DNA of 47,884 nucleotides from Candidatus Omnitrophota bacterium (GTDB lineage: Bacteria; Omnitrophota; Gorgyraeia; B26-G9): positions 1 to 47,884 of the forward strand of contig JAHIOQ010000125.1 in NCBI GenBank assembly GCA_018895275.1, read 5' to 3'. Of the stretch, positions 1 through 11,035 are shown piece after piece. Under the pieces are notes generated by a model. That model saw only the letters and a program-made list of their open reading frames with translations, was not told the origin of the DNA and ran no database searches. The position numbers and the translations under genes were made by a program. The stretch's first letter is position 1, and each line of letters opens with the position of its first letter.

Positions 1-112
<112 letters not shown>

Positions 113-133
113 AAGAAAAGAAGATGGGGGAAA

Positions 134-248
134 ATGGCGCGGGTATAAAAAAATAATTATTTGGCAAAAGGCAGATGATTTAGCATATAAGGTATATGTG
201 GAATCTAAAGTTTTACAAATCGTTAGGATAATTACTTATGACTTATGA
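134..248 (+). pseudogene. Internally deleted, frameshifted four-helix-bundle (23S rRNA IVS/Avd-like) remnant, copy 1
   Basis: ATG GCG, an extra C at 140, then GYKKIIIWQKADDLAYKVYVESKVLQIVRIITYDL*. YxxLxxWQKAxxLxxxVY is the typical N-terminus of this family. Confidence 0.8.
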
Positions 249-1608
249 CTGTGAACTTGTGACTAACAAAAGCGCTTTTACTCTTATCGAACTGATGGTA
301 TCCAGCGCGATATTAGTTGCGGTTTTATCTACTTTTTTAGTTACTTTTAACCGGACGCTTAATTTGGCAGAGCAGAGCCGCGATGATTACCTTGCCGGTT
401 CCGCGGTGCGGATGAAATTGGAAGAGATACGCAGTCATAATTTTAGCAGTATTAGGGCGGATTATGGGGCCGGTGGGACGCCGGGTAATACCTTTGACAT
501 TGCCGGATTGGCGGGAAAGGGAAGCATAGCAATAAGTGACCGGCCTGCGCTTTATGGAGGGGGAGAAAACCAGGCAACGGCTGCGGCCGGATGGGCAATA
601 AGAGATGGGCATACATCTTTAGTTTATGACAACAAAATGTGGTTAATAGGCGGTGAAGATGGCACTACTTGCTTTAATGATGTCTGGTATTCCACTAATG
701 GAATAAACTGGACACTGGCAACTGCCTCAGCCGGCTGGGAAGGACGAGCTTATCATACTTGTTTAGTCTATGACAACAAGATATGGATAATGGGTGGCAT
801 GAAGCCACCGGCTATTTATCTGAACGATGTCTGGTATTCTGTAGATGGTATAAACTGGACTGAAGCCACTTCTGCTGCTGCCTGGTCGGCTCGAAATAGC
901 CATACCTCCTTAGTCTATGACAACAAGATGTGGGTCATGGGCGGTTATGCTGCTAAAAACGATGTCTGGTATTCTACTGATGGAATCAACTGGGTCCAAG
1001 CCACAGCTTCAGCTGTCTGGCAGCCAAGAAATGCGCATACATCTTTAGTTTATGATAATAAGATGTGGGTAATTGGTGGGCAAGCTGGTAGCCGTCTAAA
1101 TGACGTGTGGTATTCTGTTGATGGAGTGAACTGGGCCCAGGCCACAGCTTCAGCTGCCTGGGTAGGCAGAAGCTTACATACATCTTTAGTTTATGATAAC
1201 AAGATGTGGGTGATTGGCGGGTATGTTGGAGTGAAAAAAAACGATATCTGGTATTCCACCGACGGCGCAAACTGGGTGCAAGCAAAATCTGCTGCAAATT
1301 GGTCCCCTCGATATGGCCATAGTTCTTTGAACTATGATAACAAGATGTGGGTGATAGGGGGGTATGATGATGATTATAAAAACGACGTCTGGTATTCAGT
1401 TGGCTATGACCGGCTGCTGGAGGTGGTAATTACCGTTTGCTGGCAGGACAAGAGCGGCCGGATTATCGGCGAGGATACAAATCTTAATGGTATTCTTGAT
1501 GCCGGAGAAGATGTGAATGTAAACGCTGAACTGGATTCACCGGTTAATTTCCGGGAATTTATTACGGATAAGGAGAAGTTAACAAGGATATATTTGGGAG
1601 GTAGTTAG
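238..1608 (+). CDS. PilV-like minor pilin with an inserted six-bladed Kelch beta-propeller
   Basis: Prepilin motif SA|FTLIELMV plus hydrophobic helix; six ~47-aa repeats (HTSLVYDNKMWVIGG...NDVWYSxDGxNW); acidic C-terminal EDxNxNGxLDxGED. Confidence 0.88.
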   Translation: MTYDCELVTNKSAFTLIELMVSSAILVAVLSTFLVTFNRTLNLAEQSRDDYLAGSAVRMKLEEIRSHNFSSIRADYGAGGTPGNTFDIAGLAGKGSIAISDRPALYGGGENQATAAAGWAIRDGHTSLVYDNKMWLIGGEDGTTCFNDVWYSTNGINWTLATASAGWEGRAYHTCLVYDNKIWIMGGMKPPAIYLNDVWYSVDGINWTEATSAAAWSARNSHTSLVYDNKMWVMGGYAAKNDVWYSTDGINWVQATASAVWQPRNAHTSLVYDNKMWVIGGQAGSRLNDVWYSVDGVNWAQATASAAWVGRSLHTSLVYDNKMWVIGGYVGVKKNDIWYSTDGANWVQAKSAANWSPRYGHSSLNYDNKMWVIGGYDDDYKNDVWYSVGYDRLLEVVITVCWQDKSGRIIGEDTNLNGILDAGEDVNVNAELDSPVNFREFITDKEKLTRIYLGGS

Positions 1609-1629
1609 TTTATAGAGTTTATTGGGCAC

Positions 1630-1706
1630 AAGTCAGAAGTCAGAAGTCAGAAGTCAGAAGTCAGAAGTCAGAAGTCAGAAGTCAGAAGGAAGAAGTCAGA
1701 AGGAAG
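1630..1706. repeat. Heptamer array of 11 units: (AAGTCAG)x8, AAGGAAG, AAGTCAG, AAGGAAG
   Basis: Counted directly. Confidence 0.97.
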
Positions 1707-1714
1707 AGGGGAAA

Positions 1715-1831
1715 ATGGCGGGATATAAAAAATTAATCGTTTGGCAAAAGGCAGATGATTTAGCATATCAGGTATATGTGGAGACTATGGAAATTTTACA
1801 AATCGTTAGGATAATTACTTATGACTTATGA
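1715..1831 (+). pseudogene. Internally deleted four-helix-bundle remnant, copy 2 (open 38-aa mini-ORF)
   Basis: MAGYKKLIVWQKADDLAYQVYVETMEILQIVRIITYDL*; purine-rich RBS (GAGGGG) upstream; its 3' end overlaps the start of the next pilin gene. Confidence 0.82.
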
Positions 1832-2435
1832 CTGTGAACTTGTGACTAACAAAAACTCAAGTAACTCAAGACGCGCTTTTACCTTAATAGAAATGATGAT
1901 GGTCATCAGTATGTTTTCTGTTATCATGGGCATTGTTTACGCGGCGTTAAGGACAAATGATGTTTATAACGGGCTTATACAGATTCAGGTGGACTTGTAT
2001 CGTCAGAATCAAAGAGCCCTGTCTTCGATATCGGAAGAATTAAAGAAGTCGAATTTGGCAACGAGAGTTACTATTCAGGATGGGGCGGGAGTAAATAATA
2101 CGGACATTATTTACTTTCAGCTGCCAATTGGACTGGATAATAATTATAACATAATCTGGGGAGCGGATGGCACAAATAATTATTATGCGCGTTATCGGTT
2201 AGACGCGACGGCTGCATTTCTACTGCGCGATATCCTGGCCGCGGGGCTTACCCCGGCCGCGGGGACCGGGCAGCAGAAGGCATATAGGATTATTGATTTA
2301 CAGTTCGCGGATTCCGCGTTGGATGCATCTGTTCCGTCCGGCAGTATAAGAATTACAAGTACGGCACAAAGGCAAAGCCCGGATAAACATAATATAACTT
2401 TATCTAATAGTGCCTTGGTGTATTTGGAAAATTAA
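1821..2435 (+). CDS. PilW/PulJ-like minor pilin
   Basis: RRA|FTLIEMMMV prepilin motif plus hydrophobic helix; position in the operon. Confidence 0.88.
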   Translation: MTYDCELVTNKNSSNSRRAFTLIEMMMVISMFSVIMGIVYAALRTNDVYNGLIQIQVDLYRQNQRALSSISEELKKSNLATRVTIQDGAGVNNTDIIYFQLPIGLDNNYNIIWGADGTNNYYARYRLDATAAFLLRDILAAGLTPAAGTGQQKAYRIIDLQFADSALDASVPSGSIRITSTAQRQSPDKHNITLSNSALVYLEN

Positions 2436-2575
2436 CAGTCAATAGTCAGAAGTCTAAAGTCAGAAGTCAGAAGTCAGAAGTCAGAAGTCTAAAGTCAGAA
2501 GTCAGAAGTCAGAAGTCAGAAGTCAGAAGTCAGAAGTCAGAAGTCAGAAGTCAGAAGTCAGAAGTCAGAAGTCAG
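2436..2575. repeat. Heptamer array of 20 units (mostly AAGTCAG, two AAGTCTA) filling the whole intergenic space
   Basis: 140 bp = 20x7, running from the base after the TAA (2435) to the base before the ATG (2576). Confidence 0.97.
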
Positions 2576-3310
2576 ATGAAAACTAAAAATTCAAATAAGG
2601 GCATGATTTTAATCGGCGTAATTCTCGTAATTTTTGTCGTTATGGTTTATCTTTCCAGTCAGACTTTTCTTGTTGTTTATGACCAGAAAAATTTACAAAA
2701 GGAAAAAAAAGCGCAGTCCGCGGTATTTTTTGCCAAAGCCGGATTAGAAAGGGCTATGCTGGATTTGTATCTGGATGATGATTCCTGGCTTGACGGGGAA
2801 ATCAATAATAATGCCGTTACGGTTGCGGACGTAAATAATCCCGATAACTTTGTTTCTTTATATAATAATCAGCCTTTAGGGGATGGGTTTTATACGGTAG
2901 AGATTGATTATTTACAGAAAGACCCTTCCGGGGGCTCTCCCCCCTGGGATTTTTATGATAAACGCATGTTTTTGCGTTCTACGGGAACAGCTTCTGACGG
3001 CACACAGAAGATTTTGGAGCAAATAGCCCTTTGGTACCCGATTAAAAATCTTACGCAAGGGATTTTGTACACGTCTTTACAAAACGCGGTAGATGATGCC
3101 CAGGATAATGACGATATAGCTGTTACCATGGTAAAACTGGCGGAGAATATCGTTATCTCTCCGGCCGCGTATAAACGCTACAAAATCAAGGGAGGATATG
3201 ATTCTCTTTTTCAAATTCGTTTGATCGCGGAATATCCGACAATTATTGCCGGAACCGTAAATATAGGTACAAATGCGGATGTTGAATTAAGCGGCATTAC
3301 TATTGAGTAA
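2576..3310 (+). CDS. PilX/GspK-like minor pilin
   Basis: KG|MILIGVILV leader without E5; AxFxAxAGLExA motif; lies downstream of the PilV/PilW-like genes. Confidence 0.8.
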   Translation: MKTKNSNKGMILIGVILVIFVVMVYLSSQTFLVVYDQKNLQKEKKAQSAVFFAKAGLERAMLDLYLDDDSWLDGEINNNAVTVADVNNPDNFVSLYNNQPLGDGFYTVEIDYLQKDPSGGSPPWDFYDKRMFLRSTGTASDGTQKILEQIALWYPIKNLTQGILYTSLQNAVDDAQDNDDIAVTMVKLAENIVISPAAYKRYKIKGGYDSLFQIRLIAEYPTIIAGTVNIGTNADVELSGITIE

Positions 3311-5077: not shown

Positions 5078-6466
5078 TTGAAAAGATTTTGGATGGGGTT
5101 ATTTGTTTTTACGGTGACAATGATCGCTTTGACTATTTATAATAAACCTGTTTTTGCTCAATCGGAAGATATGCCGGGAATTAGTATAAAGGAAGACAAT
5201 TTAATCGATTTGGATATGAAAGATGTGGATATGAAAGATGTGGCAAGGATGTTTTCCCGTATCAGCGGTTTGAATATCATTATCAGTGAAGCAGTTAAAA
5301 ATAAAGTTACTTTAAGCGTTACTAATGCGGATTGGGAAAGCGCGTTGCAGATGATTTTAAAAACATATGGTTTAGTTTCTATCCGTGAGGGAAATTTTTT
5401 AAGGATTCTAACGTATAGCGAGTTGCAGCAGGAAGAAATAAATGTTCCGTTAATATCAAGGGTAATATTTTTGAATTTTGCCAAGGCAGAAAGCATGCGG
5501 AGTTCTCTTGAGTCGATAAAATCAGCGCGGGGAAGGATTAATGTCGATATAAAAACAAACAGTTTAATTATAACCGATAGCCCGGCAAACATCCAAAAAA
5601 TGGAAAAGGTTATGGGAGAGCTTGATAAACGTACGCCGCAGGTTTTAATTGAAGCTTTGATGCTGGATGTGAAACTTAGCGAGGATGAACAACTGGGAGT
5701 AAATTGGATGCTGGGAGATAAGGATACGATACATGATGATAATGATTATAATGATAGGTATGTACGGCAGAATTTAAGCGCGGGCAGGGTAGAAGGGATT
5801 TTAAAGTACGGGAAAACTATTTATAAAAATACGGAGTTAAACGCGCTTATTGACTTTTGGCGGCAAAATCAGAAAGCGGAGGTGTTGGCGAACCCCAAGG
5901 TAATGACTTTAGACGGATTGACGGCAAAAATAGAGCTGAGCGAAGAGGTTCCGTATATCCAATCCACGATATCTTCCGATACAGGATCGATAACGTCTAC
6001 CGTTTCATTTAGGAATGTGGGGATAAAGCTTGATGTTACGCCTACGATTAGCGCTGAAGGATTTGTTTCTTTAACGATTAAAACCGAACAGAGTTTTCGA
6101 ACCGGAACAATCGGGGGCCAGCCGATCGTTGATTCCCGGAAAGCGGAAACCAACCTTTTGGTGAAAAGCGGAGAAACGATTGTAATCGGCGGCTTGCGGA
6201 AAAAGAATAAAACGGACACGATAGATAAAATACCATTATTGGGCGATCTGCCTGTAATCGGCAAGATGTTTAGAAGAAAGGTGACTTCATCTACCGATAC
6301 TGAATTGCTTCTTTTTGTGACGCCATTTGTAGTTAATCAGCCGCAATTAACTCCCCGAGAGCAACTAAATTTGGGAAAGTTTGATTCTGTCAGGGATGAA
6401 AGAAAAAATATCCTGGATTCTAATACGAAAGATGCGGAGCCTTTTCCGTTGCGTCCGTTAGAGTGA
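5078..6466 (+). CDS. pilQ: Secretin, PilQ/GspD family
   Basis: Signal peptide, N domains, QVLIEA, and GETIVIGGL...KIPLLGDLPVIGKMF...ELLLFVTP secretin motifs; TTG start after AAGGAGG. Confidence 0.95.
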   Translation: MKRFWMGLFVFTVTMIALTIYNKPVFAQSEDMPGISIKEDNLIDLDMKDVDMKDVARMFSRISGLNIIISEAVKNKVTLSVTNADWESALQMILKTYGLVSIREGNFLRILTYSELQQEEINVPLISRVIFLNFAKAESMRSSLESIKSARGRINVDIKTNSLIITDSPANIQKMEKVMGELDKRTPQVLIEALMLDVKLSEDEQLGVNWMLGDKDTIHDDNDYNDRYVRQNLSAGRVEGILKYGKTIYKNTELNALIDFWRQNQKAEVLANPKVMTLDGLTAKIELSEEVPYIQSTISSDTGSITSTVSFRNVGIKLDVTPTISAEGFVSLTIKTEQSFRTGTIGGQPIVDSRKAETNLLVKSGETIVIGGLRKKNKTDTIDKIPLLGDLPVIGKMFRRKVTSSTDTELLLFVTPFVVNQPQLTPREQLNLGKFDSVRDERKNILDSNTKDAEPFPLRPLE

Positions 6467-6528
6467 AAAGGCAGGATATGTGATACATGAGTTATCTGCC
6501 ATAGCACCATAGCAATGGAAAGGGTTCT

Positions 6529-7209
6529 ATGGCAGGGAGGTATAATTTGTTTCGTTTCACTATTAAAATTAAACTTTTCTTAAGCGCCTTTTTTATTTAT
6601 CTGGCTGTTCTTTTAATAATAAGTGATTTATGCCCGGGGGCCGAGTTAATTGAGGAAAATAAATCAGATGAAAAGGAAATACAGTATAGGCTGGATAAAG
6701 AAGAAGCGATGCTTTGGGCACTGCTGAACTGTGTTAATGAAGACGGCACTGCTTATGAAGAAGAGTTTATTAAATCCCATGTGCCTAAAAATAGAAGAAA
6801 TAGAAATTCTTCCGTCGCGAAGAATTCAGCGGTAAGGGCTGAATTGGGAAATGAAGAACAATTGAAAAATAAGAAAAAAAGGACGCATTATCAACTGGGC
6901 TATCAATATGCGCAAGAGGGAGATTATTTGTCGGCAATATCTCAGTTTGAGATGATTTTAAAATATGACATCCTGGATAAAAATTCGTATTATAACTTAG
7001 GTTATCTTTATGCCAAAATAGGCAGATATGAAGATGCCGTAAAGGCATATCACCGGGCATTGCAATTATCCCGCGATCCGAATGATGGCCAGATATACTA
7101 TAATTTAGCTTTAATTTACGATAGCGGGTTAAAGGATAAAGAAAAATCAAGGCAATATTACGAGAAGTTTTTAGACGCTTCCAATATTTTTTCGGAAAGA
7201 AAGAGATGA
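6529..7209 (+). CDS. Membrane-anchored TPR protein
   Basis: N-terminal hydrophobic segment; TPR motifs (HYQLG, YYNLG, YYNLA). Confidence 0.8.
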   Translation: MAGRYNLFRFTIKIKLFLSAFFIYLAVLLIISDLCPGAELIEENKSDEKEIQYRLDKEEAMLWALLNCVNEDGTAYEEEFIKSHVPKNRRNRNSSVAKNSAVRAELGNEEQLKNKKKRTHYQLGYQYAQEGDYLSAISQFEMILKYDILDKNSYYNLGYLYAKIGRYEDAVKAYHRALQLSRDPNDGQIYYNLALIYDSGLKDKEKSRQYYEKFLDASNIFSERKR

Positions 7210-8225
7210 GCAAGTTGAATAATAAAGATTCAGCAATTGGCCTGGATATCGGCAATTTCAGCATAAAGGCTGTTAGCCTGGGAACGGCCGGCTTCGGTAA
7301 GAAAAGAAGTTTTTCTTTTGGCATAAGTCCTATTCCGGAAAATGCAACGAATTCCCAGATTTCCGAAATAATTCGAAAAACTTTAGGGAAAGCCGGCATA
7401 ACTTCCTCACGGGTAAATATTGCCGTCAGTGGGCCGCATCTTTCGTATAGATTTATCCGGATGCCGGTTATGCGCCGCTCTGAACTGAAGGGCGCGCTGC
7501 AATTGGAATTGGATAAATATATACCTTTTAAATCCGAAGAGGTAATTTGGGATTGTCATATATTGGAAACCGTAGTTGTTCCAAGTGTAGGAAGACAACT
7601 GGTAGTTTTACTTGTTGCGGTTAAAAAAGATTTTCTGGCAGAACGTATAAGTATAGTTAAAAATGCAGGCCTTGAACCGCAGCTTGTTGATATCGATGTT
7701 TTAGCTTTAATGAATGCCTTTAATTTTATGCACCGAAGTGAAGAAAAAAAAGTTTACGCGCTTATGAATATGGGGTCTTATTTTACAAATATTGTGGTGA
7801 TAAAAAAGGGGATGCCTCAATTCGCGCGCGATATTTTATGGGGAGGCCGCGATATAACTCAAATATTAGCAGAAAGACTGCACTTGGCTTATTCTACGGC
7901 AGAAGCAACAAAGTATAATATTGGAGAGGAAGATAAAGACATTATAAGGCTGATAAAGATTGTTCTTGAAAATTTGTGCAATGAGCTTAATATCTCTTTC
8001 GAATATATAAAAAAAGAGATAGGAAAAGAAATAAGCGTGGTATATCTCAGCGGAGGTTCTTTGCGTTTATACGATGCGGAAAAATTTCTCGAACACAGCC
8101 TGGGGCTAAAGGTTAAAAGGTTTAATTTCAGCAATGTTTTTAATTTTAACGGCAATATCTCTCCGCAGGAATTGGAGCTTGTTTTGCCGGAATTGGTTGT
8201 TGCTGCAGGGCTTGCTTTAGATTGA
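7206..8225 (+). CDS. pilM: Type IV pilus assembly protein PilM
   Basis: Actin-like motifs IGLDIG..SIK, YIPF, LSGG and the C-terminal AAGLAL. Confidence 0.93.
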   Translation: MSKLNNKDSAIGLDIGNFSIKAVSLGTAGFGKKRSFSFGISPIPENATNSQISEIIRKTLGKAGITSSRVNIAVSGPHLSYRFIRMPVMRRSELKGALQLELDKYIPFKSEEVIWDCHILETVVVPSVGRQLVVLLVAVKKDFLAERISIVKNAGLEPQLVDIDVLALMNAFNFMHRSEEKKVYALMNMGSYFTNIVVIKKGMPQFARDILWGGRDITQILAERLHLAYSTAEATKYNIGEEDKDIIRLIKIVLENLCNELNISFEYIKKEIGKEISVVYLSGGSLRLYDAEKFLEHSLGLKVKRFNFSNVFNFNGNISPQELELVLPELVVAAGLALD

Positions 8226-8343
8226 GGCGCGTGATGCCAAATCCGGTTTTTCAATTGTTTTGGCGGAATTTGATGCAAGTTCGCAGCAACGGGAGATTAT
8301 TCTTACGTTTATCGGTTGTTAGAACCAGAAAAGATCGGGAAAT

Positions 8344-9532: not shown

Positions 9533-11035
9533 ATGGCGGATTCTGAGAGTTTAAAACAGAAAGCGGTTTTTATTATTAAGCGTTTTAAAAAAATCAGCCT
9601 GTTTTTTTTAGGATGCTGCCTTGTTTTATTTACGCTCGAGGCGGGGCTTCAGGTTTCCAGCTTTATTGCCCACCGCTTTTTTCTGCCGCAGTATGATTTC
9701 CCCAAAATTCATACTGCGAATACGCGGATAATTTTTTGCCTGGGAGATTCCTTTACCTACGGCATCGGCGCGGGATTCAATCACAGCTATCCCGCGCAGC
9801 TGGAGGAAATCTTAAACCAGAGGTCGAAAGGGCTAAATTTTAAGGTATATAATCTCGGCGTGCCCGGCTATAACTCTACGCAGGTTGCCAACCGTCTAAG
9901 GACAGTGGTTACAAGCTGTAAGCCGGACGCGGTAGTCGTTCTCTGCGGCTGTAACGACAATTGGAATTTTCGCGACATGAAATGGCATTGGAACTGGGGA
10001 ACACTGGCGGTTGATTCTTTATTGTCTAAATTGCGGGTTTACCGGATGGCAACTGTCTTTTTCCAAAACATGCGGCAATCCGGGGTTAACCCGGTTAAGC
10101 ATGATTCTTTGCCGGCAGTACGAAAAATTCTGGTGAAAGGAAATGACGAACAAAAACTGGTAGCCTATGCGAATATTTACAGAGACGCGGGGTATTATGA
10201 ACAGGCAAAGGTTTTTTATGAAAAGTCGCTTTTTTTAAAGCCGAGCAGCCGGGTGGCGCTGATGGAGTTGGGGCGTTGTTATAAGTTGAACAGAGAATAC
10301 AATAGGGCCGTGGAAACCTTCGGCGGTATGCTGAAGAACAATGTCGATGATTCGCCGGTGTATGAAGAATTGGATGATGTTTTTAGAAGATTGAACGTGA
10401 TCGAAGAGCCGATTGCTTTTTATACGGCTCTTTTAAAGAAATTTCCCGGCAATAAACAGATTAGACGGCGTTTATCAAAGACATACGTTCACTTGGGAGG
10501 GACATTGTATAAAAACGGGCAGGTAGATGAAGCGTATTGCTTATACAGCGATGCGGTCATACTTGACCCGGAAAACAAAAAAGCGCAGAAATTGCTGGAA
10601 ACCATGCGGATTTTCCGCGAACTGCGCGGCACAAATAAAAACTCGATTTTAAGCCTGTCGCCTTTTGATATCTTAAAGTTTGTGGAAGGGTATCTCATTA
10701 TTAAAATCATGCCGATTAAGAAGATAACGGATGATTTGCTTATTGAAAACCTTTCCGCGATGGCCGCCTTATGCAGGGAAAAAGAAATCCCCTTGATTTT
10801 TTCCGGGTATCCGCGAGAAATACCGGAAAAAATAAAAGAGCTGGCATTACAGGATAACATTCCTTTAGTCGAGCATGAAAGATGTTTTGCGCGGCTGTTG
10901 GCTGCCGCTCCTCTGGAGGTGTATTTTATTTCTGAGGACGATCCGCATTGCACGCGGCTGGGCTATCGCGTCATGGCGGAAAATATAGCGGAGGCTGTTC
11001 TTGAGACGATTGACTTTATTCAGAAGGGTTTGTAG
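9533..11035 (+). CDS. SGNH/GDSL hydrolase with TPR insertion, paralog 1
   Basis: TM anchor; GDSFTYG, NLGVPG, GxND and DxH (DPHCT) blocks; TPRs in the middle. Confidence 0.88.
   Translation: MADSESLKQKAVFIIKRFKKISLFFLGCCLVLFTLEAGLQVSSFIAHRFFLPQYDFPKIHTANTRIIFCLGDSFTYGIGAGFNHSYPAQLEEILNQRSKGLNFKVYNLGVPGYNSTQVANRLRTVVTSCKPDAVVVLCGCNDNWNFRDMKWHWNWGTLAVDSLLSKLRVYRMATVFFQNMRQSGVNPVKHDSLPAVRKILVKGNDEQKLVAYANIYRDAGYYEQAKVFYEKSLFLKPSSRVALMELGRCYKLNREYNRAVETFGGMLKNNVDDSPVYEELDDVFRRLNVIEEPIAFYTALLKKFPGNKQIRRRLSKTYVHLGGTLYKNGQVDEAYCLYSDAVILDPENKKAQKLLETMRIFRELRGTNKNSILSLSPFDILKFVEGYLIIKIMPIKKITDDLLIENLSAMAALCREKEIPLIFSGYPREIPEKIKELALQDNIPLVEHERCFARLLAAAPLEVYFISEDDPHCTRLGYRVMAENIAEAVLETIDFIQKGL

Follow-up and report, generated by a model that had tools for sequence, protein, structure and literature searches.

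The pilus operon and its heptamer arrays

The window analysed here, that is, the whole stretch of 47,884 nt, is contig JAHIOQ010000125.1 (C103 in our numbering) of a 2.56-Mb metagenome-assembled genome (MAG) of a Candidatus Omnitrophota bacterium, estimated to be 88.7% complete. Its first 6.5 kb carry, on the plus strand, a pilus operon that opens with two prepilin genes (prepilin 1, 238-1608; prepilin 2, 1821-2435) and a third gene with a pilin-like N-terminus (2576-3310), followed by weak PilN- and PilO-like matches and a secretin (E 2.3e-46). An array of heptamers stands before all of the first three genes (1-116, 1630-1702 and 2444-2576), and the first two are also fronted by a duplicated block which, as we argue below, is probably the remains of a selfish element that supplies the start of the pilin leader. 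The third array differs in having neither a remnant open reading frame (ORF) nor a right arm, and offers almost no Shine-Dalgarno (SD) sequence (-1.0 kcal/mol). Six sequencing runs were found to contain the stretch; they are groundwater metagenomes, with no RNA run listed among them.

Both predicted pilins have the sequence FTLIE followed by a hydrophobic stretch, in agreement with the N-terminal methylation motif and the hydrophobic helix with Glu5 of type IV prepilins. The Pfam N_methyl model scores 29.3 bits in pilin 2 (over the cut-off of 21.2) and 20.0 bits, just below it, in pilin 1, and database records describe P0003 and P0004, both orthologues of pilin 2, and P0006, an orthologue of pilin 1, as prepilin-type N-terminal cleavage/methylation proteins. 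One record assigns an orthologue of pilin 2 to Candidatus Omnitrophica. Pilin 1 matches Kelch_1 in six stretches (E 3.4e-34), and a 141-nt tandem repeat lies within its DNA at 823-1256. The two proteins share the N-terminus MTYDCELVTNK, after which the expected cleavage site A/FTLIE (the slash marks the point of cleavage) is reached two residues later in pilin 1 and eight residues later in pilin 2.

A duplicated block that retains both ends of a four-helix-bundle gene

The block of about 150 nt (120-275 and 1703-1854) is 91% identical between its two copies (E 4.8e-55) and is present only twice in the 2.56-Mb assembly, 11 of the 13 matches at E<=10 being chance matches of 14-21 nt. The differences are unevenly spread, with 10 events in 134-210 (77 nt) vs none in 211-271 (61 nt; Fisher P = 0.0024), where all 61 nt equal those at 1794-1854. 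This identical part, comprising the SD sequence, the start codon and the leader, points to either constraint or recent homogenisation. Identity ends at 271/1854; copy 2 then has 18 extra nucleotides, before both copies continue with a shared 10 nt, GCGCTTTTAC, encoding Ala-1, Phe+1 and Thr+2. An earlier, sequence-only reading of this DNA had described a shared MTYDCELVTNK start derived from a repeat arm, with identity ending just before A/FTLIE, and this is what both ORFs and the block alignment display. The 18 nt of copy 2 may be a relic of an older repeat arm, as they resemble the NSMNSMNSSNS stretch of P0006.

Judged by sequence, the block is a cassette of the intervening sequence (IVS) type with an internal deletion, i.e. 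a PF05635/TIGR02436 gene with a purine-rich arm of tandem repeats on one side and the inverted complement of that arm on the other. What remains of the gene is codons 1-24 and, in a different frame, its final 8-9 codons with the stop, and neither copy has a complete ORF. The remnant N-terminus is 82-95% identical to 21 full-length proteins of 116-131 aa (21 of 26 candidates; PF05635 on record for 21/21). The six of these relatives that we fetched start ...GYKKLIVWQKADDLAYQ... and end in (K/N/R)FY(K/L)(S/V)(L/F), for example ...KFYKSL or ...NFYKSLK, as does the remnant with ...KFYKSL before its TAA. One full-length relative, P0010, matches TIGR02436 at 1.6e-32, and the short frame opened by the N-terminal remnant of copy 2 (hereafter the mini-ORF) aligns, weakly, to positions 1-20 of 23S_rRNA_IVP (Pfam, E 0.094). 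The matches at both termini indicate that the block corresponds to a four-helix-bundle gene minus approximately 85 internal codons, and because the deletion junction is the same in both copies, a single origin of the two would follow.

The same genome holds seven further PF05635 matches above the Pfam cut-off, one of them (on contig C150) with an internal TAG. By eye, at least five of the seven genes (C127, C57, C150, C129 and C133) are flanked on the left by a short tandem repeat and on the right by the reverse complement of that repeat, and the loci on C68 and C94 have a similar, less regular layout. A full-length parent with (AGAAGTC)n arms was also sought, and no four-helix-bundle ORF stood beside the array at the 27 loci examined. 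Arrays of the (AGAAGTC)n type are present in 24 of 401 Omnitrophota genomes sampled, some of them as gene-less hairpins, and a DNA search for the block in 40 relatives returned only matches of 22-37 nt (E 0.001-0.008).

The right arm had been described as an inverted heptamer arm, and complementarity to the left array was seen in one of the two copies. Over 31-37 nt, the right arm of copy 2 (1815-1853) shows 76-77% complementarity to the left (AGAAGTC)n array, and the arm tips are roughly inverted (9 of 12 positions match, judged by eye). In copy 1 the unit of the left array, AGAAGAC, is not complementary to the right arm, and a search for an arm-to-arm inverted pair in that copy found none.

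Public Logan contigs from two studies reproduce the sequence from 211/242 onward and at 1708-1854 without differences, although the best-matching run may be the source sample itself. Contig depth is zero over bins 100-178, the region with base 140, in all four runs compared, and the contigs of these four runs all break inside heptamer arrays. In one contig of run X2 the sequence before pilin 1 is of the copy 2 type, the two being joined through the 61 nt that the copies share; this is possibly an effect of the assembly graph, and we draw no inference from it. In the window at 1601-1700, depth over the (AGAAGTC)n array was 20-130x that of the flanks in runs X1, X2, X3 and X5, with many different loose ends, which indicates that these groundwater metagenomes contain the array at many further loci or in many other organisms. 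The coordinates of the individual parts are collected in Table 1.

Table 1. Parts of the two block copies, the adjoining pilin genes and the sites of a second mini-element (positions in the window unless a contig is named)
Feature	Position	Strand	Details
Prepilin 1	238-1608	+	456 aa; Kelch beta-propeller modular pilin; leader MTYDCELVTNKSA (238-276); expected cleavage just ahead of F 277
Prepilin 2	1821-2435	+	204 aa; leader MTYDCELVTNKNSSNSRRA (1821-1877), then FTLIEMM...
Left tandem array, copy 1	1-116	+	Tandem Repeats Finder: unit AAGACAG x16.6; contig begins within array
N-terminal remnant, copy 1	134-206	+	PF05635 ORF; strong SD upstream (-8.4 kcal/mol); homology demonstrated on copy 2
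C-terminal remnant, copy 1	205-231	+	Other frame, L K F Y K S L G stop; original TAA 229-231; AGGA 225-228
Right arm, copy 1	232-270	+	Degenerate inverted heptamers TTATGAC, TTATGAC, TGTGAAC, TTGTGAC, TAAC; pilin ATG 238, in-frame GTG 259
Left arm, copy 2	1618-1702	+	Terminal TTTATTGGGCAC, then (AAGTCAG) x10.4; begins 9 nt past pilin 1 stop
N-terminal remnant, copy 2	1715-1786	+	MAGYKKLIVWQKADDLAYQVYVET; SD -8.1 kcal/mol; frame continues as mini-ORF to TGA 1829-1831
C-terminal remnant, copy 2	1785-1814	+	Other frame, L W K F Y K S L G stop; AGGA 1808-1811
Right arm, copy 2	1815-1853	+	Pilin ATG 1821, GTG 1842
Extra 18 nt, copy 2 only	1855-1872	+	9-nt unit x2; encodes most of NSSNSR
Third array	2444-2576	+	(AGTCAGA) x19; abuts ATG of gene 2576-3310 (MKTKNSNKG + hydrophobic stretch)
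Mini-element at prepilin	C4:66622-66911	+	In frame at G/F-T
Mini-element at prepilin	C4:67250-67539	+	In frame at G/F-T
Mini-element at prepilin	C24:53810-54099	-	In frame at G/F-T
Mini-element at prepilin	C30:13999-14288	-	In frame at G/F-T
Mini-element at prepilin	C120:11302-11591	+	In frame at G/F-T
Mini-element at prepilin	C62 near 8085-8226	+	In frame at G/F-T

The candidate start codons of the pilins lie in the right arm

An in-frame TAA, the old stop of the cassette gene, stands two codons before each pilin ATG. As a result, the only possible starts are this ATG (238 and 1821) and a GTG seven codons on (259 and 1842), both of them within the arm, and the end of the arm coincides exactly with pilin codon 11. 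We conclude that the start codon and codons 1-11 of both pilin genes are right-arm DNA of the cassette, which bears out the earlier proposal that the leaders were built from that arm. None of the stops in the arm (four TGA and one TAA) is in the pilin frame; in an arm of perfect periodicity, all three frames would be closed.

The proposal that the pilin ATG has no SD sequence of its own did not hold. An AGGA lies 9 nt before both pilin ATGs, where it forms part of the final sense codons of the decayed cassette gene, and is about average in strength for this genome. Pairing with the anti-SD (an assumed generic sequence, because the MAG lacks the 16S 3' end) gave -4.0 kcal/mol for the pilin ATG, +0.4 for the in-frame GTG, and -8.1 and -8.4 for the ATG of the dead cassette gene, compared to medians of -5.0 for 1533 long ORFs and -2.6 for random sites; 43% of the 1533 ORFs bind as weakly as the pilin ATG or more weakly.

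Cleaved leaders as a probable place for foreign DNA

We consider it probable that two internally deleted IVS-type cassettes front the adjacent pilin genes, and that their arms encode the start and the first 11 residues of disposable leaders. Each copy fills the intergenic space directly before a pilin gene of a type IV pilus operon; translation would start at the ATG in the arm, and prepilin peptidase would then remove everything before Phe+1. The insertion may have been close to neutral, because removal of the leader would leave the mature pilins unchanged, and it is probably harmless, since the leader should be cut off before the pilus is assembled. The block would then have been copied to the second pilin gene. 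The likely route is recombination, with heptamer arrays as its left boundary and the conserved FTLIE codons as its right one, an arrangement that would allow copying by homologous recombination; alternatively, it may have moved as a non-autonomous element. The insertion before pilin 2 appears to predate the split from P0002, a relative 85% identical to pilin 2, because P0002 keeps the same leader.

Counted from the ATG, the two leaders are 13 and 19 residues long, within the range of class III signal peptides (6-26 residues), and contig C87 carries a gene for a prepilin peptidase (PF01478, 76 bits). The idea that cleaved leaders tolerate repeat- or cassette-derived DNA, put forward in the sequence-only reading as a safe haven, is supported by the leaders of orthologues and by a second, unrelated element at prepilin cleavage codons. 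Among the relatives of pilin 2, P0002 has the same arm-type leader, P0003 a repeat-like N-terminus of 37 residues, P0004 the N-terminus MGDQFQLISVIRKHRFIKVRTG, and P0005 a native-looking one, MFKEKGVKVQGRG. P0006, a 63% orthologue of pilin 1, has a four-helix-bundle-like N-terminus (PF05635 positions 1-42, weak, E 0.11) followed by a repeat peptide and then CG/FTLVE, and P0007 and P0008, also relatives of pilin 1, have leaders with a periodicity of seven residues, as expected of heptamer DNA. The DNA of close orthologues was sought in metagenome and genome contigs, with a protein and then an alignment as the query, and only distant pilins were recovered.

The second element is a palindromic mini-element of 120-153 nt, unrelated to the cassette, that sits in frame exactly at the G/F-T cleavage codons of six other prepilin genes of this genome (Table 1). 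The sequence CCCCGTTAGAGAA and its complement form the two ends, and each side has a copy of TTTAC. For four or more of the six genes, a short native leader (M-x3-5-G) is in frame just before the element, and the open frame continues through it to a second G/FTL(I/V)E, extending the leader from about 5 to about 45-55 residues. Six of the 20 two-ended copies lie at prepilin G/FT codons vs 0.07 expected (binomial P ~5e-11), if insertions are assumed to spread over 7,846 TTTAC sites. Four more copies precede other hydrophobic N-termini (on C87, C156, C4 and C133).

It may be that in Omnitrophota the codons of the cleaved leader are a preferred site of landing or retention for at least two unrelated selfish families whose traces prepilin peptidase erases, a generalisation that we offer tentatively and with less than even confidence; the same reserve applies to naming the two families as the IVS-type four-helix-bundle cassette and the TTTAC-targeting palindromic mini-element. 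If it is true, erasure by prepilin peptidase would be the protein-processing counterpart of splicing, and cassettes that bring their own ribosome-binding site and start codon would repeatedly rewrite the initiation of pilin translation.

Several observations weigh against the leaders being tolerated cassette DNA in the way proposed. Both end in Ala at -1 and not in Gly, which PMC4471445 calls invariant and critical in bacterial prepilins with leaders of 6-26 residues; Ala-1 is found in 5 of the 23 plausible prepilins of this genome (26 motif hits minus those on C46, C78 and C111, which have no hydrophobic stretch), that is, in three besides these two, and in 3 of 50 prepilins sampled from genomes of the family. 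The leaders contain Asp, Glu and Cys, with a net charge of about -1 in pilin 1, and typical leaders here are short and basic. Cleavage of both by prepilin peptidase is an assumption. The identical 61 nt could stem from recent gene conversion rather than constraint, and the open frame through the arm is not evidence of selection, because in a crude simulation 32-45% of randomly decayed arms retained an ATG frame open to the arm end. The repeat origin of the P0002-P0008 leaders was read from peptides alone, their N-termini being choices of gene callers. Finally, among 50 prepilin N-termini of the family genomes (a sample biased to the best N_methyl scores) a tandem repeat lies within 150 nt upstream in 4 and the mini-element in none. 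A repeat- or cassette-derived leader is local and sporadic, not the rule for pilins.

Alternative readings of the locus

How much of the arm is translated depends on the start codon. Initiation at the in-frame GTG (259/1842) would yield leaders MTNKSA and MTNKNSSNSRRA (6 and 12 residues), leaving the first seven 'codons' untranslated and reducing the contribution of the arm to the start and three further codons. Such leaders resemble the short basic ones of other prepilins in the genome, e.g. MKTKNA/FTLIE on C75, and would dispose of the acidic, Cys-containing MTYDCEL stretch, atypical for a leader. However, the GTG has no SD-like sequence before it, its pairing energy being weaker than that of 89% of the long ORFs, and P0002, which begins MTSDCELQTNKGA/FTLIE, has Gln in place of the GTG codon while keeping the Met, the residues M-T-S-D-C-E-L and the open frame. 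The difference in pairing energy together with this Gln favours the ATG, and we regard the GTG start as unlikely. The same atypical features, Ala at -1 and the acidic leader, might also be taken as signs that the insertions disabled both pilin genes, which would now be turning into pseudogenes. This we consider very improbable: both ORFs are intact, with 456 aa in pilin 1 and 204 aa in pilin 2; along its entire length pilin 2 shares 85% identity with P0002, whose leader is the same; and the orthologues of pilin 1 are 55-63% identical over the N-terminal 130 residues searched and of similar length (429-473 aa).

Other explanations would give the block a function in expression. It had been suggested that translation of the pilins is coupled to the mini-ORF, and that its being open in copy 2 and closed in copy 1 sets different amounts of the two pilins. 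The assembled sequence is as described: the copy 2 mini-ORF (1715-1831) is open, and that of copy 1 reads ATG GCG CGG GTA TAA, closed after four codons because one extra base (C) at 140 shifts the frame. An overlap of the pilin ATG with the end of the remnant ORF exists in copy 2, where the TGA at 1829-1831 overlaps the ATG at 1821 by 11 nt. A strong SD also precedes the mini-ORF start, its energies of -8.1 and -8.4 kcal/mol ranking among the strongest fifth of genes, and in an intact parent cassette the TAA of the gene would fall 6 nt before the pilin ATG. Nevertheless, the mini-ORF joins two pieces of a defunct gene out of frame, copy 1 has it interrupted, and an AGGA serves the pilin ATG itself, which leaves coupling as a stoichiometry device with a slim chance of being right; some coupling might still occur in copy 2. 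We give about the same low credence to a regulatory role of the arms and arrays, whether a hairpin that hides the pilin start, cutting by RNase III, or switching of expression by variation in array length. Arrays stand before three pilus genes in a row, the minimum-energy fold of copy 2 pairs its left array with the complementary right arm, and RNase III excises the Coxiella IVS at a terminal stem (PMC4990558). The fold of copy 2 (-55.4 kcal/mol) is, however, no better than those of shuffled sequences (-51.05 +/- 4.34 kcal/mol; z -1.0, with 32 of 200 shuffles as good), its centroid structure lacks the long stem, and copy 1 shows no pairing of arms (z -0.78). A search of Rfam matched no family, save one chance microRNA match at E 0.52, and a scan for promoters and terminators stayed at chance level (8 promoter-like sites found vs 7.7 expected). 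We infer that the mini-ORF reflects decay, not design, as do two features of copy 1, its frameshift and its mismatched left array.

Relation to known elements and implications

The IVS in the 23S rRNA of Coxiella burnetii is described as a selfish element with an ORF (S23p) undergoing reductive evolution (PMC4990558). The cassette resembles it in having a small ORF of the PF05635 family between terminal inverted repeats able to form a stem, with complementarity of the arms seen in copy 2 and not in copy 1; unlike it, the element lies between pilin genes and not in helix 45 of 23S rRNA, its arms are tandem heptamers, its ORF is internally deleted, and a host protein includes the translation of one arm. 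Excision by RNase III, as in Coxiella, is structurally implausible for copy 1. A second parallel is offered by the Rickettsia palindromic elements (RPEs), selfish repeat DNA carried in frame in host genes and tolerated as an extra peptide (PMC10969869). Here too, as with RPEs and intragenic miniature transposable elements with inverted repeats (MITEs), selfish repeat DNA is tolerated in frame within a host gene, but RPEs stay in the mature protein, whereas the peptide in our case belongs to a segment expected to be removed, and the element also supplies the start codon. It differs from MITEs in having only two copies, an imperfect terminal inverted repeat and no target-site duplication that we could see. 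We know of no transposase for the parent cassette. The leaders agree with class III prepilins (PMC4471445) in the hydrophilic leader within the length range, F-T-L-I-E, the hydrophobic helix and the presence of a prepilin peptidase gene; they depart from them in the Ala at -1, in the acidic or neutral leader of pilin 1, and in the foreign, non-coding origin of the first 11 residues.

Searches of the literature (supplementary files not included) found no paper on pilin leaders derived from repeats or cassettes, or on these cassettes outside rRNA. ORF-bearing IVS elements, in-frame selfish DNA and class III signal peptides are all known kinds, and it is their combination that is new: in two neighbouring genes, a prepilin owes its ribosome-binding site, its start codon and its disposable part to a cassette arm, and a second element is found at the same codons. 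This offers a concrete route by which selfish DNA could persist harmlessly in genes for an important surface structure, inside a peptide that is discarded, and it gives two things a visible effect on host genes: the heptamer repeats of bacteria and the four-helix-bundle family of '23S IVS proteins', which is poorly understood. For annotation it means that odd, long or repeat-like prepilin N-termini in metagenomes are often genuine insertions and not errors, which predictors of start sites and signal peptides trained on short leaders with Gly-1 will misjudge.

Repeats and cassettes in other reading frames

Translation of such repeats was also seen elsewhere. In two other Omnitrophota genomes an array of the (AGAAGTC)n type is translated, as KSEVRSQ within a 474-aa ORF (locus L098) and as the extreme N-terminus of a 303-aa ORF (MKKSEVRSQES..., locus L106). 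On C127 of the present genome (~6330-7341, minus strand; locus L014) an ORF of at least 229 aa runs through a whole full-length cassette, arms included, in another frame; both flanks look like pieces of one host gene, and ~200 nt upstream this ORF also contains a second hairpin, built of similar repeats and lacking a gene. On C133 (~10340-10460, plus strand; locus L019) the gene 3' of another cassette begins MATDINRKIRIAQ..., and its first codons resemble the last unit of the right arm, which suggests that arm-derived N-termini may extend beyond pilins.

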